Shown here: positions 6,577-53,104 of the stretch, one piece after another
How positions within the stretch are numbered: position 1 is the stretch's first letter
How the letters are laid out: each line of letters begins with the position of its first letter
The notes under the pieces: model-generated
What the model was told of the DNA's origin: nothing
Database searches by the model: none
The model's input: the letters and a program-made list of their open reading frames with translations, nothing else
Made by a program: the position numbers and the translations under genes
Source: Candidatus Heimdallarchaeota archaeon
GTDB lineage: Archaea; Asgardarchaeota; Heimdallarchaeia; Hodarchaeales; Hodarchaeaceae
DNA length: 64,000 bases
Direction: 5' to 3'
Assembly (NCBI GenBank): GCA_011364965.1
Contig: RDOB01000004.1
Location: forward strand, 32,001-96,000

Positions 6577-6891
6577 TTATGATCGATCCTTTAGCACAAC
6601 AATTGTAAAACTTGCTGCCTCATCAGGGGTAATTATCAATTCTGATTGGGGCATTTCTATATAAACGCTTTGAAGCTTCCCGTGATTTAAAGCATCAGAC
6701 ACACTTCTGACTTTTTTCACCAAAGATGCAACATGGGCTGATACTCGTTCAGCATCGGATTGTGGTAGGTTACTTTGTAGTGGCAATCCATCTTCATCAC
6801 ATACAAGGATTCCTTTCACTCCACGTCGGGCTGCAAGTCGTTTAATCGTATTTTGAAGAACTGAAGGTATTACATATTCATCATTGGACAT
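6577..6891 (-). CDS. Roadblock/LC7 protein (dynein light chain roadblock-like)
   Basis: IKRLAARRGVKGILVCDEDGLPLQSNL; ELIITPD; 104 aa. Confidence 0.9.
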   Translation of the reverse strand: MSNDEYVIPSVLQNTIKRLAARRGVKGILVCDEDGLPLQSNLPQSDAERVSAHVASLVKKVRSVSDALNHGKLQSVYIEMPQSELIITPDEAASFTIVVLKDRS

Positions 6892-6899
6892 TTTATCAC

Positions 6900-7241
6900 C
6901 TATTTTAATGTTGAGGGACCACCTTCCCTCTTGACAAGAGCAACAATTATTATTTCAGAGTCAAAATCAGGAATGATTTCGACATCACCAACTTCTAATT
7001 CTAATCTGATACTGCGAGCCACTTCCTTAGAAATCTCTTTAGATATATATTTCACCTTACCCACTAATGAGGCCACATTCGCTGCTACATTTTCTGTATC
7101 CTCTGATGGTAAACTTGATTGAAGTGGTAATCCATCTGTATCACATAGAACTGCTCCATATACTCCCTTGTGTTTTCCTACTGATTCTATTACTTTTTCC
7201 AGTGCTTGTTGGGATAAATATCCTGCTCCTTGTTGTGACAT
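6900..7241 (-). CDS. Roadblock/LC7 protein
   Basis: HKGVYGAVLCDTDGLPLQSSL; VASLVGKV; paralog of the adjacent gene. Confidence 0.9.
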   Translation of the reverse strand: MSQQGAGYLSQQALEKVIESVGKHKGVYGAVLCDTDGLPLQSSLPSEDTENVAANVASLVGKVKYISKEISKEVARSIRLELEVGDVEIIPDFDSEIIIVALVKREGGPSTLK

Positions 7242-47621: not shown

Positions 47622-48215
47622 CTATCGCTCGCGCATTTCTTCTAGCGCTTTTAATTCCTCAAGACCTGATGGAAGTACTTCTTCTAATTCTTTAATTTTA
47701 GCTTTTAAAAATTCTATAGTTTGCTGATTCTCTTTTTGAGCTAGTTCTTTTCCGCACGTTGTGCAAATGAAACCCAATTCAAACGCATCTGAAAAAGTTA
47801 CTGGAGTATGACCTTCATCACAGACATACAGCAGATTCCGTTGCTCATAATCAAGTCTCTGACGAAGTTTCTTAAGTGAAAGCTTCCTGCGACTTATAAT
47901 TAGATCCCGAATTCGTTCCCAGATAGGTGACCAATAGTAAACAAAGTACCCAGTTTCTTTATCTCTAACCCGACGATATCTTGCCAAGGATCGTTCATTT
48001 AATTGATATAAAGACTTTCTGACCATTTTTAACGCGATTCTTGAAGATTCTTTTTCTTCAGCTTCATTTTCCTGAGGTTCTCCGAGATCAGCATTAAGAA
48101 TATTGACAATTTCTTCATCAATAATTTCTTTGTGGTCTAGTAGAGTATTGAGTACCCTTACAGTGATTTCATCTGTTAATTTCAAAATTATATCGTCAAT
48201 TTGAGGAAAACTCAT
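47622..48215 (-). CDS. tfe: Transcription factor E (TFE/TFIIE-alpha)
   Basis: VRKSLYQL...YRRVRDKETGYFVYYW; YVC..GH...F..CTTCG. Confidence 0.93.
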   Translation of the reverse strand: MSFPQIDDIILKLTDEITVRVLNTLLDHKEIIDEEIVNILNADLGEPQENEAEEKESSRIALKMVRKSLYQLNERSLARYRRVRDKETGYFVYYWSPIWERIRDLIISRRKLSLKKLRQRLDYEQRNLLYVCDEGHTPVTFSDAFELGFICTTCGKELAQKENQQTIEFLKAKIKELEEVLPSGLEELKALEEMRER

Positions 48216-48302: not shown

Positions 48303-48776
48303 TTAGAAATTTTCGAGCTCTTTTAACGCGGCCATGATCGATTGGGATTCTGGCTTTTTTATTTTTACTGCAGAGGGCTCTGATAGCTTATCCATTAGTG
48401 TAGATAGGGTGCCAGAGGTTTCTTTCATTCTAACTCTGATTAAACCAAGTTGGGCGTCACCTTCTGCAACCACAACTAGTACTCCTCTCTCTCCGCTTTG
48501 AGCTGTTAAAATTTTCCCATCTGTAAACTCAGCAAGCATCAATCCGAGTTCCCCTAATGTTAGCGCACTTCCTTGTTCTGCTGCTCCACAGAAAACGGCG
48601 GATGCTATGGCTCCTATGCTTTCAAGATCAAACGCACCCATAGTTTCAGAAACTAATAACCTAGAAGCTCGGGCGATAGTTAAACCGGTTCGATCTCCTA
48701 ATAAAGTAACTTTGATCGAGGTATCACTCTTCAAAAGTTTTGTCAGTTCTTTGTGAATTGCGTCTCTTTGTTGCAT
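48303..48776 (-). CDS. Roadblock/LC7 (MglB-like) protein
   Basis: TLLGDRTGLTIA, IGAIASAVF, EFTDGKIL, QLGLIR; ATG 48776 after GGTG preferred over track start 48791. Confidence 0.88.
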   Translation of the reverse strand: MQQRDAIHKELTKLLKSDTSIKVTLLGDRTGLTIARASRLLVSETMGAFDLESIGAIASAVFCGAAEQGSALTLGELGLMLAEFTDGKILTAQSGERGVLVVVAEGDAQLGLIRVRMKETSGTLSTLMDKLSEPSAVKIKKPESQSIMAALKELENF

Positions 48777-49035
48777 CGAATAAACACCCAAATCCGCATT
48801 ACTTAGTATTCGCTCTGCTACTTAAATGATTTTACCTTGTAATAGTTTAAGTAGTTTTTCAAATAGGGTCTCAACCTTATCCTCATTTTGAATTTTTTGT
48901 TTAGAAATTATTCCTCCAAAATTCTACTGTTAATCTATAAGGAATGATGATATAGATGCCAAGGAAGTACTTTAAACTTTCCCTTTTCAGACGGATTAAT
49001 TCTATAAATCGTTTTCCATTATTAATCTTTAATAA

Positions 49036-49752
49036 TTAAAGTACAATAATTACAATTACCAGTGCGATGACTGATCCTGCAAGTAATGCTAGCAATGTCC
49101 GATTTTGTGTTAACTTTCTTGAAATTTTGATTAGAGTTGCTTGAACATTCTTTAATTTATCATCTACTGCCGTGATTTTCGTATCAATTTTATCAATTTT
49201 AACTCCCTGTTCATCTAACCTTTGTGTTAATGTGGCTAGATTCTGGGAAATTTGTTGGATTTGATTATTCATCTGATCCATAGAGGTTAGGAATGAATTT
49301 TCTAGGATTTGTAATCTTTCTTCAAGTGTACCTACATTTTGAGAGGTGATAGCTTCCCCTGGATAAGCAATTTCATAGATCCGATTACCGAGATGAGTTT
49401 CTGGAGGACTAGCTTTTAGATCCATAGTTTCGATTGAACTTCCGATTCCACTCAACGTTTCTCTTAGATGACGCATTTTTTGTTTCGTAGTCAGAATTTC
49501 TTTTATTTTCTCATTTTGACGCTTAATTTGCACAGGTTGTAAGAATTTTGGCAAAGAAGAAGCAATTTTGGTAGAGAGGGATCTCTGTTTAATAACTTGG
49601 TCTGAATATCCAGAATGCATGTCATCAGCCATATCTTCCATTGTTTCCAATATTGTATCCAAATCCCCAATGAAATCCATGATCATTTCCTTTTCAGTTG
49701 GCTCAGATGGCTTTTTTAACCATTTTTCCAAACGCTTAGTTATCACAGACAT
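49036..49752 (-). CDS. Tail-anchored SNARE-like (Qc/syntaxin-6-like) coiled-coil protein
   Basis: Heptad segment centred on LDEQ (Q182), basic linker SRKLTQNR, single C-terminal TM with no luminal tail. Confidence 0.7.
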   Translation of the reverse strand: MSVITKRLEKWLKKPSEPTEKEMIMDFIGDLDTILETMEDMADDMHSGYSDQVIKQRSLSTKIASSLPKFLQPVQIKRQNEKIKEILTTKQKMRHLRETLSGIGSSIETMDLKASPPETHLGNRIYEIAYPGEAITSQNVGTLEERLQILENSFLTSMDQMNNQIQQISQNLATLTQRLDEQGVKIDKIDTKITAVDDKLKNVQATLIKISRKLTQNRTLLALLAGSVIALVIVIIVL

Positions 49753-49942: not shown

Positions 49943-52900
49943 ATGGCCATATTTCAGTGTAAAAAACCAAAAAAATCACTTTTCATGCTTTTATTGGCAT
50001 TTTTTCTTATCATACCACCAGTATTTGGTATTATAACATTAAACAAGGAAATTCAGATCGAAACTCCATCTCAACAAGATGTTGAAACCCTAGTTCAAGA
50101 GTTTCACCTTACCCAGAAACCTAAGGAGCAACTTTTTCTGATTTATTTTGATGAGGATAAAGATTTCTACAATTTTCTCGATAATCAGAATGTGAATCTT
50201 ATTTTTAGAGGGCTAAAAGGAGTCGTTATAAAAAGTACTCATAATAATGTTAACCAATTAATAGGAAAGTATAAATATCTTTCTGAATCTAATTTTCATT
50301 TAATTGAAGGATCCGATCATAAATATGTAGTTCACGAAACACCTCAAAATAAATATAATCTAGTTGATGACCAACTATCCCTTTCAATTCAAACTTTGGC
50401 CTCAGCAGCGAAAATAGGTGCAAATAAAATGTGGCAGCAAGGGTACAAAGGCCAAGGAGTTAAAATATGTATAATAGACGAAGGAATCAACGCGAGTCAT
50501 TCAGATTTCAGCTTTCCCAACGGAACTAATCGAGTTGTAGCCCGAGAAGGATTTGTTAATACAACATATGGAAATTCTGAAGATCTGAATCCTAGGGAGG
50601 GATCTCATGGAACTAGCGTAGCAGGCACAGCGGGTGGAGGAGGAATTCTGATTCCAAATAATCAAGGTATAGCAAATGAATCACTTTTCCTCGATGCAGA
50701 TGTAGATGAATCTCCTGATACAAATAGTTTAGATTTCACTATCCTTGGCCATATTGCCGCAATTAATTGGGCAATTGAAAATGGAGCTGATATCATAAAT
50801 CGTAGCTATGGTTCAAGTAATGGAGAAGATACCTATTGGATATATCGCTTAGTTCCTGACTATAAAGCATTAATGGCAACAATCAGACAAGGAACAAAAC
50901 AGGGAGTTGTTTTTGTACACTCAGCAGGTAATGAAGGAGGATCAGGATACACCATATCCCCTGACAATATCATTGAAGAGATAACTGTTGCTGCAACTGA
51001 TCCCTCGATGACACATCGAGCGGATTTTAGTAGCACAGGGCCAGTTTGGCGGACAAATGCTATAAGTCCAGATGTAACTGCTCCAGGGGATGATATAGCT
51101 GCCCCAGATGTTAGAGGAGGGTATAGTGTTGTGCAAGGTACATCATTTTCTGCCCCACATGTCGCAGGAGCTAGTGCACTTTTAATAAACGCTGCAAGAA
51201 TGAATAATCTTGAAATTAACCCAGGTTCAGTTAAAAGTATTTTAATAGCTACAGCAGAAGACATAGATGAAAGTATCTTTGCTCAAGGAACAGGACAAAT
51301 AAATGTTTCAGCAGCATTCGATTATTTATTATCAGCTCAAAGAATAGGTGTGCATCCAATTGTAGGTGCAACTAATCCTAGAAACCTAAATGATTTGAAC
51401 TTACCTCAAATTCTATTAGGTACTGAATATTTAACCCATTTTACTTTTACATCTTCAGAAATGAAAAATGCGTCAATTTCATTGACTGGAAACATCTCAT
51501 CACTAATTTCCTTTGAAGAGCAATTATGGATTGATACACTCTATCAAGGAATGAAACTGGAGAAAATTAACCTTGCAGGGGAAAATTTATCTGAACAGTA
51601 TTCTCATGATATTATTTTACGAATTCAAGTACCGGAAAATACCCCTCTTGGTTTTTACTACGGAGATATTATTTTCAAGGTAAATGACACCAATATCTTA
51701 ACTAAACCAATATCTTTTAATGTAAATCCTAGTATAATGAGAGTTTTATTGCATACAGGAGATTCCGCTAGTTTTCGGTACAATTCATTGGGGGATTTTA
51801 GAGAACTTGTTTCTGGATTGAGTTCTGAAGGTATTGTAATTAACGAGAACAATTCAATCATTTCAGATGAACTTCTATCAGACTATGATGTTGTGTGGCT
51901 CGCAGCAGAAAATCGGACTTATTCTGTGTATAATTACAACAATTACTCCGATACAATCACCACTCTTACGCGTGATCAGCTTTTTACAGAAGAAGAAAGA
52001 CTAGCTATAGTCTCTTTTGTGGAAAATGGCGGTGGAGTGATAATGACTCCATACACGACCACTCTCGGAGTTGAAGAGATAATAAACAGCTGGGGAATAA
52101 GCTCGAAATTAGATGCAGATATAAGTGGAAATCCAGGAACTTTAATTCATGCTAATGAGATTGGAAAGGATTTCGGTCATTTTGATATTTCAGGATCATA
52201 TTTTTCAGTTACGGAATTAGCCCTTCCATTAGCTTATCATAATCAACGAAAAAACATAGTTTTAGCTTCCTATGATGCTCCATTTGGAGGAAGAGCTATC
52301 ATCGCCTCAGGTAGCGACTTTATAACTAATTGGGGGTATCAAAATGAGTTAACCGATCAACCTGATTTTGATATTCAGAATGACATGCTAGTAGAAGATA
52401 TTTTAACTTGGCTTTTATCTGAGGATCAACTAACTGGGTTGTTTAAACAGAATGGTGATGTATTATCATTTTCCCTGCACATTTCAAACAATTTTGTTCC
52501 CGATAACAGTGGAGGTTTAACAGGATCAGTTCAGAGAATCGGAAGTGTCAATCAAGAAGACGTAACATCTGAAATGCCATCAACTGGTACTAATGGCTGG
52601 TATAATTTCACCTATACCATTTCTGAGGGATTTTTCTTCTTTAATTTTAGCTGGAATGATGTTTTCATAGCTTTTGAGATAATAAATGATGAAACAGCTC
52701 CAATCATAGGAATCAGTGGTGTGGAAAATAATACCGTATTCAAAGTTCCAACTGATGTAATTTTCTGGTTTGATGACGCAGGATCAGGAATCAATCAATA
52801 TAGTGCTGCAATGACTATTAATGGAAGTAAGGCCAACTTCAATACCCCTAAGAAGAATTCTACTGGAACTGGTTATTACATTGAGAAAACTTTTTATCCC

Positions 52901-53104
52901 GATGATATGGAAAAAGGGATTTATGTTGTTGAACTAAAAATTTCGGATCTGGCAGAGAATACAGCATCAATTATCTTCGTCTTCAGAATAGGCCGTACAG
53001 GAACTCCTGAAGAACCTGCAGATAATGGTACATCTGGTTTTGAGTGGAGTTTGGTTATTAGCTTGTTTATTCTTGGACAGGTTTTCAGAAAAAAATGGAA
53101 ATAA
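49943..53104 (+). CDS. S8 subtilase with GATase-like (GIFT/DUF4350-type) and Ig-like domains and C-terminal sorting signal
   Basis: IIDEG (D), SHGTSVAG (H), SAGNEG (N), GTSFSAPHVAG (S); DYDVVWL...FTEEERLAIVSFVENGGG; TSGFEW-TM-RKKWK tail. Confidence 0.88.
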   Translation: MAIFQCKKPKKSLFMLLLAFFLIIPPVFGIITLNKEIQIETPSQQDVETLVQEFHLTQKPKEQLFLIYFDEDKDFYNFLDNQNVNLIFRGLKGVVIKSTHNNVNQLIGKYKYLSESNFHLIEGSDHKYVVHETPQNKYNLVDDQLSLSIQTLASAAKIGANKMWQQGYKGQGVKICIIDEGINASHSDFSFPNGTNRVVAREGFVNTTYGNSEDLNPREGSHGTSVAGTAGGGGILIPNNQGIANESLFLDADVDESPDTNSLDFTILGHIAAINWAIENGADIINRSYGSSNGEDTYWIYRLVPDYKALMATIRQGTKQGVVFVHSAGNEGGSGYTISPDNIIEEITVAATDPSMTHRADFSSTGPVWRTNAISPDVTAPGDDIAAPDVRGGYSVVQGTSFSAPHVAGASALLINAARMNNLEINPGSVKSILIATAEDIDESIFAQGTGQINVSAAFDYLLSAQRIGVHPIVGATNPRNLNDLNLPQILLGTEYLTHFTFTSSEMKNASISLTGNISSLISFEEQLWIDTLYQGMKLEKINLAGENLSEQYSHDIILRIQVPENTPLGFYYGDIIFKVNDTNILTKPISFNVNPSIMRVLLHTGDSASFRYNSLGDFRELVSGLSSEGIVINENNSIISDELLSDYDVVWLAAENRTYSVYNYNNYSDTITTLTRDQLFTEEERLAIVSFVENGGGVIMTPYTTTLGVEEIINSWGISSKLDADISGNPGTLIHANEIGKDFGHFDISGSYFSVTELALPLAYHNQRKNIVLASYDAPFGGRAIIASGSDFITNWGYQNELTDQPDFDIQNDMLVEDILTWLLSEDQLTGLFKQNGDVLSFSLHISNNFVPDNSGGLTGSVQRIGSVNQEDVTSEMPSTGTNGWYNFTYTISEGFFFFNFSWNDVFIAFEIINDETAPIIGISGVENNTVFKVPTDVIFWFDDAGSGINQYSAAMTINGSKANFNTPKKNSTGTGYYIEKTFYPDDMEKGIYVVELKISDLAENTASIIFVFRIGRTGTPEEPADNGTSGFEWSLVISLFILGQVFRKKWK

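Follow-up and report, generated by a model that had tools for sequence, protein, structure and literature searches.

A probable Hodarchaeales orthologue of the prototypic SNARE HPS1, its zero-layer glutamine and its gene neighbourhood

The window, i.e., the 64,000-nucleotide stretch of DNA that was analysed, encodes on its minus strand a SNARE-like, tail-anchored protein with the following features:

49036..49752, minus strand: whole SNARE-like ORF, 238 aa plus stop, putative HPS1-type prototypic SNARE, tail-anchored
49333..49752, minus strand: N-terminal helical region, residues 1-140, with predicted helices at 20-54, 59-64, 74-109 and 118-129
49111..49293, minus strand: SNARE motif, residues 154-214, with hydrophobic layers -8 to +9 at 3/4 heptad spacing
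49207..49209, minus strand: codon of the zero-layer residue Gln182 (Q183 by HPS1 numbering)
49099..49110, minus strand: short linker TQNR, residues 215-218, within the near-invariant KLTQNR
49039..49098, minus strand: C-terminal transmembrane helix, residues 219-238, without a luminal tail

These features confirm what had been read from the letters in the initial annotation, namely a real ORF at 49036-49752 with a heptad motif, a central polar layer at Q182 and a C-terminal transmembrane (TM) segment. Residues 219-238 (TLLALLAGSVIALVIVIIVL) constitute a hydrophobic helix that is the last part of the chain. Taking Gln182 as layer 0, layers -7 to 0 correspond to M158, M161, I165, I168, L172, L175, L179 and Q182, and layers +1 to +8 to I186, I189, I193, V196, L200, V203, L207 and I210; Gln182 is the single conserved polar layer of this 16-layer heptad motif. 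The motif string quoted in that annotation corresponds to residues 158-218. The protein has the architecture of the Heimdall prototypic SNAREs, i.e., a helical N-terminal region, the motif, a short linker and a terminal TM domain.

Based on a word-indexed search, we identified 67 homologues with 56-84% identity to the window protein, the closest being 84% identical and the majority of the others 56-74%. Wherever a source label was given, it was that of an Asgard archaeon, mostly of the Hod- or Heimdall-group. No variation was seen among the 67 homologues at F154, at Q182 or within the linker stretch KLTQN. A wider alignment of 53 family members, reaching down to 24% identity with the window protein, showed that the 18 positions at 3/4 spacing (154 to 214) are 94% hydrophobic, as compared with 13% at the remaining motif positions, and that the layer 0 residue is Gln in 50 members and His in 3. 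The conservation of the Gln among homologues, on which the earlier reading had been made to depend, holds in these alignments. The members with a zero-layer His are P0068, P0078 and L042:2432-3145 (minus strand), with the contexts EEHG, GDHG and HGVVLE. Additionally, the motif EQG-x-x-(I/L)-(D/E)-x-(I/V) is conserved throughout the family. When the family profile was run exhaustively against 1.84 billion representative proteins, only 24 clusters reached E<=1e-10; they consist of full-length relatives (214-282 aa), some fragments and a single long protein of repetitive sequence. The matches below that level were repetitive coiled coils and included no eukaryotic SNAREs.

The gene is present in a single copy in its own genome (2.97 Mb, 87% complete). 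Among 400 Asgard genomes, SNARE-like genes were confined to five Heimdallarchaeia families, occurring in 19/21 genomes of family f1, 2/2 of f2, 1/1 of f3, 3/3 of f5 and 11/12 of f6; they were not found in f4 (0/31), in f7 (0/12) or in the other families of the set. The lone exception is a weak partial match outside Heimdallarchaeia, G283:C117:872-1096 (minus strand; E 4e-5, profile positions 159-226), which is probably a generic coiled coil. This combination of a single copy and a Heimdallarchaeia-limited range matches the published distribution. A tandem duplicate was observed in one of the 400 genomes only, G078, which belongs to the same order and another family; its SNARE-like genes are located at L049:2978-3697 and L049:3757-4470, both on the minus strand, with no Roadblock gene nearby. 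The pair fits the two duplications described by Bentahar et al. (10.64898/2026.10.19.760048) and could represent a first step toward heteromeric bundles.

Downstream of the SNARE-like gene, two further genes are transcribed in the same direction:

48303..48791, minus strand: Roadblock/LC7 (MglB-like) protein, 162 aa, 244 nt beyond the stop of the SNARE gene
47622..48215, minus strand: TFE/TFIIE-alpha-like protein, next downstream, third gene of the collinear trio

The Roadblock neighbour that had been proposed at the outset holds up, with 31.6 bits for 48303-48791 against PF03259 (cut-off 23) and a weak MglB match in NCBIfam. The order SNARE-Roadblock-TFE was found at 21/21 assessable loci of the same family and in G079, which represents a second family of the same order. 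The collinearity extends further, as judged from three wider loci, with a HAD hydrolase and a DUF7121 gene in 3/3 and an S8 protease and a polyprenyl synthase in 2/3 each. Because these further flanking genes are collinear too, the Roadblock adjacency is not specific. In G078, as in families f5 and f6, separate contigs carry the best Roadblock match, the TFE gene and the SNARE gene, and the linkage was rejected as functional evidence on account of this loss. We read the Roadblock adjacency as an inherited, order-level collinearity that is restricted to Hodarchaeales, and not as a conserved pairing. The intergenic gap between the SNARE and Roadblock genes is 244 nt here and varies from 31 to 456 nt elsewhere, suggesting separate promoters. 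The own genome encodes eight Roadblock paralogues; the strongest two of the eight Roadblock/LC7 matches, with 60.9 and 50.6 bits, are the tandem genes at 6610-6855 and 6942-7199, both on the minus strand. The adjacency has no mention in the two reports on Heimdall SNAREs (10.1101/810531, 10.64898/2026.10.19.760048) or in the study of Asgard Roadblock proteins (PMC10933270). On its other side, the SNARE gene is divergent from a gene for an S8 subtilase of 1053 aa with a C-terminal hydrophobic tail (49943-53104, plus strand), which is also present in L002 and L003. At the corresponding place in GCA_020351745.1, about 300 nt upstream of the SNARE gene, we observed a short Cas12f1/TnpB-like fragment (PF07282; L001:4385-4705, minus strand) that occupies the position held by the S8 protease in other genomes.

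A different gene adjoins the SNARE gene in families f5 and f6, which probably correspond to the Heimdall and Kari clades of the literature. It encodes a protein of about 349 aa (range about 345-369 aa) with the motifs IPSW, GFYLNxPV, GPG and QAxxRGxxSRNxFxPNK, and it was found beside the SNARE gene in 12/13 assessable genomes of these two families, in three arrangements (on the same strand either upstream or downstream, or divergently oriented); the remaining flanking genes vary among genomes. Examples of this neighbour, together with the homologue in the own genome, are the following:

L035:4863-5912, minus strand: ~349-aa gene by the SNARE gene
L036:4457-5506, plus strand: ~349-aa gene by the SNARE gene
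L038:4689-5753, plus strand: ~349-aa gene by the SNARE gene
L039:2347-3384, plus strand: ~349-aa gene by the SNARE gene
L042:3292-4335, plus strand: ~349-aa gene by the SNARE gene
L046:1442-2551, minus strand: ~349-aa gene by the SNARE gene
L050:1450-2487, plus strand: own-genome homologue of the ~349-aa gene, unlinked to the SNARE gene

The ~349-aa protein had no match in Pfam, in NCBIfam or among PDB sequences. Its model (pLDDT 82.5) gave no convincing fold by Foldseek, VIA-align or an atlas fold search, and a language-model search gave nothing convincing. In Hodarchaeales, the gene shows no linkage to the SNARE gene. Since the family is present in 195/400 Asgard genomes, including 30/31 of the SNARE-less f4, its phyletic profile is not tied to that of the SNARE; the link between the two genes is suggestive and not exclusive. 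This neighbour is not mentioned in 10.1101/810531 or 10.64898/2026.10.19.760048.

With respect to the eukaryotic SNAREs, the Pfam models PF05739 (14.2 bits vs. a gathering threshold of 26.8), PF00957 (16.3 vs. 26.4) and PF12352 (15.2 vs. 27.1) match the window protein below their cut-offs, and no SNARE-clan model appears among its best 25 Pfam matches. The proposed check by SNARE HMMs gave only sub-threshold matches on this protein, and generic coiled coils score about equally: the Pfam SNARE models match bacterial control genomes at similar sub-threshold levels, and at E<=0.01 PF05739 and PF12352 match 48 and 46 of the 67 members, as compared with 64 for DUF1664 and 47 for COG6_N. A motif-plus-TM profile compared with the PDB found syntaxin-7 (Qa; 1.4e-4), SNAP-25 (2.2e-4) and syntaxin-6 (2.8e-4), as well as syntaxin-1A (TM included), syntaxin-13 and SNAP-29. 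While natural SNAREs scored 1e-4 to 1e-2 with the motif profile, reovirus sigma-1 reached 1e-5, chemoreceptors 1e-4 and designed bundles values down to 5e-11, as well as or better than the SNAREs. Because generic coiled coils score equally or better, sequence alone is no proof of homology to eukaryotic SNAREs, and by profiles alone the SNARE-likeness beyond a coiled coil is borderline.

The register is informative. The syntaxin-6 string that the initial annotation had used for its comparison is exactly residues 21-81 of PDB chain 2nps_D. Using HMMER, the family profile A4 aligned to this chain over 60 columns with no gap, placing Gln33 of the profile (Q182) on chain residue 45, which is the Gln of EEQAV and the zero-layer Gln of syntaxin-6. 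The hhalign comparison with the syntaxin-6 motif gave the same register (82% probability, E 1e-5, 22% identity). The claimed gapless alignment, including the spacing from the Gln to the TM segment, is consequently upheld by two programs over 50-60 columns, with Gln on Gln, and both the register over 50-60 residues and this spacing are common to the window protein and human syntaxin-6 (Qc, 2nps_D). The accompanying assignment to the Qc/syntaxin-6 type did not survive: Qa, Qb/Qc and Qc chains score alike, PF05739 and the Qb-type PF12352 match about equal numbers of the 67 members, and the published tree places the Heimdall SNAREs outside Qa, Qb, Qc and R (10.64898/2026.10.19.760048). Eukaryotic SNAREs (PF05739, PF12352, PF00957, PF03908) and HPS1-type proteins have in common the 16-layer heptad motif with one central polar layer, the tail anchor and the parallel four-helix bundle; unlike the eukaryotic superfamily, the window protein falls below every Pfam gathering threshold. 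They differ in composition as well, since syntaxin-6 belongs to a QabcR heterotetramer with 3Q:1R, whereas the HPS1 type forms a homotetramer with four Gln.

The N-terminal region had been likened to the Habc-like domain of syntaxin-6, and this was not confirmed; the region showed no domain of a known type. A Pfam search with the isolated N-terminal 140-145 residues of four members returned no syntaxin, Habc or syntaxin-6_N (PF09177) match at E<=10. Foldseek with the full-length AF2 model against the PDB found generic helical bundles only and was not informative on the N-terminal domain. The AlphaFold monomer (mean pLDDT 71) predicts helices 20-54 and 74-109 at a confidence near 90 and short helices at 59-64 and 118-129, i.e., two long and two short helices; the syntaxin-6 type of N-terminal domain has three. 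We also observed that the SNARE helix is broken at residues 182-188 (window 49207-49228) in this monomer (pTM 0.65) and that both of its halves pack back on the two long N-terminal helices, which could reflect a closed autoinhibited state or an artefact of monomer modelling.

SNARE-like proteins had been said to be on record in Heimdallarchaeia, and two reports bear this out. Neveu et al. described HPS1 (PWI47941.1, Ca. Heimdallarchaeota archaeon B3-JM-08) and HPS2 (OLS22354.1, LC_2) as tail-anchored prototypic SNAREs, showed that HPS1 binds neuronal SNAREs in vitro, and gave syntaxin-6 as the closest human SNARE, with 20-28% identity (10.1101/810531). Bentahar et al. showed that HPS1 is a helical homotetramer that unfolds only above 90 C and is not disassembled by murine NSF. 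Its crystal structure, for which a syntaxin-6 helix served as the molecular replacement model, is a parallel four-helix bundle of 16 layers; four Q183 residues form the zero layer, the core volume is SNARE-like and residues 157-215 are modelled. An F155W mutant and a construct of residues 150-216 were used in that work. The same authors described a family of about 50 members from the Hod, Heimdall and Kari groups, usually with one gene per genome and with two duplications, and pointed to vesicle-like compartments in cultivated Heimdallarchaeia (10.64898/2026.10.19.760048). Targeting of HPS1 to the ER has been shown in human cells in the literature.

We consider the window gene to be the Hodarchaeales orthologue of HPS1, a proto-SNARE working as a parallel four-copy bundle, with a probability of about 0.85. 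The SNARE-like gene is accordingly already known as a type, being a further copy of the published, crystallised HPS1 type; this copy comes from a species other than B3-JM-08 and is known here from sequence and models. The 239-aa orthologues of the window protein carry F155 and Q183, identical in numbering to HPS1, and the F154/Q182 numbering of the window protein results from a one-residue deletion near residue 117. HPS1 and the window protein have in common the tail anchor, the helical N-terminal region, the 16-layer motif, the short linker, the single copy and a range covering the Hod, Heimdall and Kari groups. The proposed orthology is based on the residue numbering, the architecture, the taxon and the distribution; cluster look-ups returned neither the HPS1 nor the HPS2 accession. 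The core of the original proposal, a tail-anchored proto-Q-SNARE, is supported by the HPS1 literature together with the register, conservation, distribution and tetramer-model tests.

Four copies of residues 150-216 were modelled as a parallel, in-register assembly whose contacts lie exactly on the predicted layer residues. The ipSAE was 0.83 (median of three runs) vs. 0.00 for the best control, the mark for this score having been calibrated on two copies, not four (it was reached by 20/30 proteins with a solved one-chain pair and by 1/23 with a solved single chain). The runs had at least 97% of contacts in common and a partner pLDDT of at least 87. This pass may reflect the model's memory of, or likeness to, solved SNARE bundles; the model supports, rather than shows, the predicted parallel homotetramer of the window protein. 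Of the four-helix bundle that had been suggested as a check, a homotetrameric model was obtained; the experimental solution belongs to HPS1 only, and for the window protein the parallel homotetramer is predicted.

As for the mechanism, we infer the following steps, including trans assembly, a Get3 route and recycling by Cdc48. The C-terminal helix would be inserted after translation, probably via the Get3/ArsA pathway, leaving the remainder of the protein in the cytoplasm; a Get3/ArsA protein is encoded in the own genome (281 bits). The 60-residue SNARE motif (about 154-214) would then combine with three further copies in a parallel, in-register four-helix bundle, with at least 15 hydrophobic layers in its core and, among them, a single polar layer that consists of four Gln182 side chains. 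Each of the four helices continues directly into its membrane anchor, so that a bundle formed between two membranes would draw these together like a zipper, in the manner of eukaryotic SNAREs. Fusion activity itself is, in our judgement, somewhat short of an even chance. The likeliest recycler would be a Cdc48-type AAA ATPase. In the proposed search for partners, the AAA ATPases found in the own genome are three, all Cdc48-type, and no Sec1/Munc18 homologue was found in this 87% complete genome, the control genomes being unable to give a signal for that family. The matches to the SNAP model (PF14938) were rejected as alpha-SNAP, being TPR-like proteins of about 430-1870 aa; this model passes its cut-off in 2/14 prokaryotic control genomes too.

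Two other readings of the protein itself have to be weighed against the HPS1-type proto-SNARE. It would be very improbable that we are dealing with a generic tail-anchored coiled coil whose SNARE likeness is convergent, with no ancestry common to eukaryotic SNAREs. Such convergence would agree with the sub-threshold Pfam matches, with the unrelated coiled-coil families that match as many members, with a 1.84-billion-protein search reaching only the own family, fragments and repetitive coiled coils, and with a monomer model that has no specific fold match; but two programs independently align the only polar residue that is conserved with the zero-layer Gln of syntaxin-6, over 50-60 gapless columns, the Gln-to-TM spacing agrees with syntaxin-6, and the family-wide EQG motif resembles the counterpart stretch of Q-SNAREs, according to a designed t-SNARE alignment. 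The 16-layer HPS1 crystal with its SNARE-like core volume, solved with a syntaxin-6 helix, and the confinement of the family to the archaeal class closest to eukaryotes also speak against convergence. Less easily set aside, and still rather unlikely, is a bundle that acts in cis, as a homotetramer within one membrane and without fusion, where it might serve as a scaffold, a membrane-domain organiser or an anchor that holds cytoplasmic partners through its N-terminal helices. Four identical helices cannot tell donor from target membrane, there is a single gene per genome, no SM protein was found and no fusion assay has been reported; the resistance of the HPS1 bundle to NSF and its unfolding only above 90 C would fit a permanent structural oligomer. 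Two observations speak against a purely cis role. Only 4 residues, which are highly conserved, separate the last layer from the TM segment here, and in eukaryotic SNAREs it is through such a short linker that zippering is passed on to the membrane as strain. In addition, vesicle-like compartments of cultivated Heimdallarchaeia are cited in the preprint.

The remaining alternatives concern the neighbours. The SNARE and the downstream Roadblock gene could form a functional module in which the Roadblock protein takes, in trans, the role that the longin domain has in eukaryotic R-SNAREs. The constant order of the SNARE, Roadblock and TFE-alpha genes at the 21/21 own-family loci and in G079 would be expected of such a module, and Roadblock and longin are related folds used in trafficking (PMC10933270). 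We hold it to be highly unlikely, given that the wider neighbourhood is collinear as well, that the three genes are dispersed over different contigs in G078, f5 and f6, that the genome has eight Roadblock paralogues and that the gap ranges from 31 to 456 nt. The broader notion that the Heimdall SNARE works with genomically linked partners, i.e., a Roadblock/MglB-like protein as a longin-like regulator in trans in Hodarchaeales and the ~349-aa protein in f5 and f6, is likewise improbable.

The window copy adds no new principle. What is contributed here is a tool-verified syntaxin-6 register, a 400-genome Asgard scan that agrees with the published distribution, evidence that the Roadblock adjacency is order-level collinearity only, and a lead to a different conserved neighbour elsewhere in Heimdallarchaeia. 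Among prokaryotic proteins, the Heimdall SNAREs are the sole candidates for the ancestor of the membrane-fusion machinery of eukaryotes, so that each correctly recognised copy matters and lends support to the view that a Heimdallarchaeial genome encodes one SNARE, which assembles homomerically.
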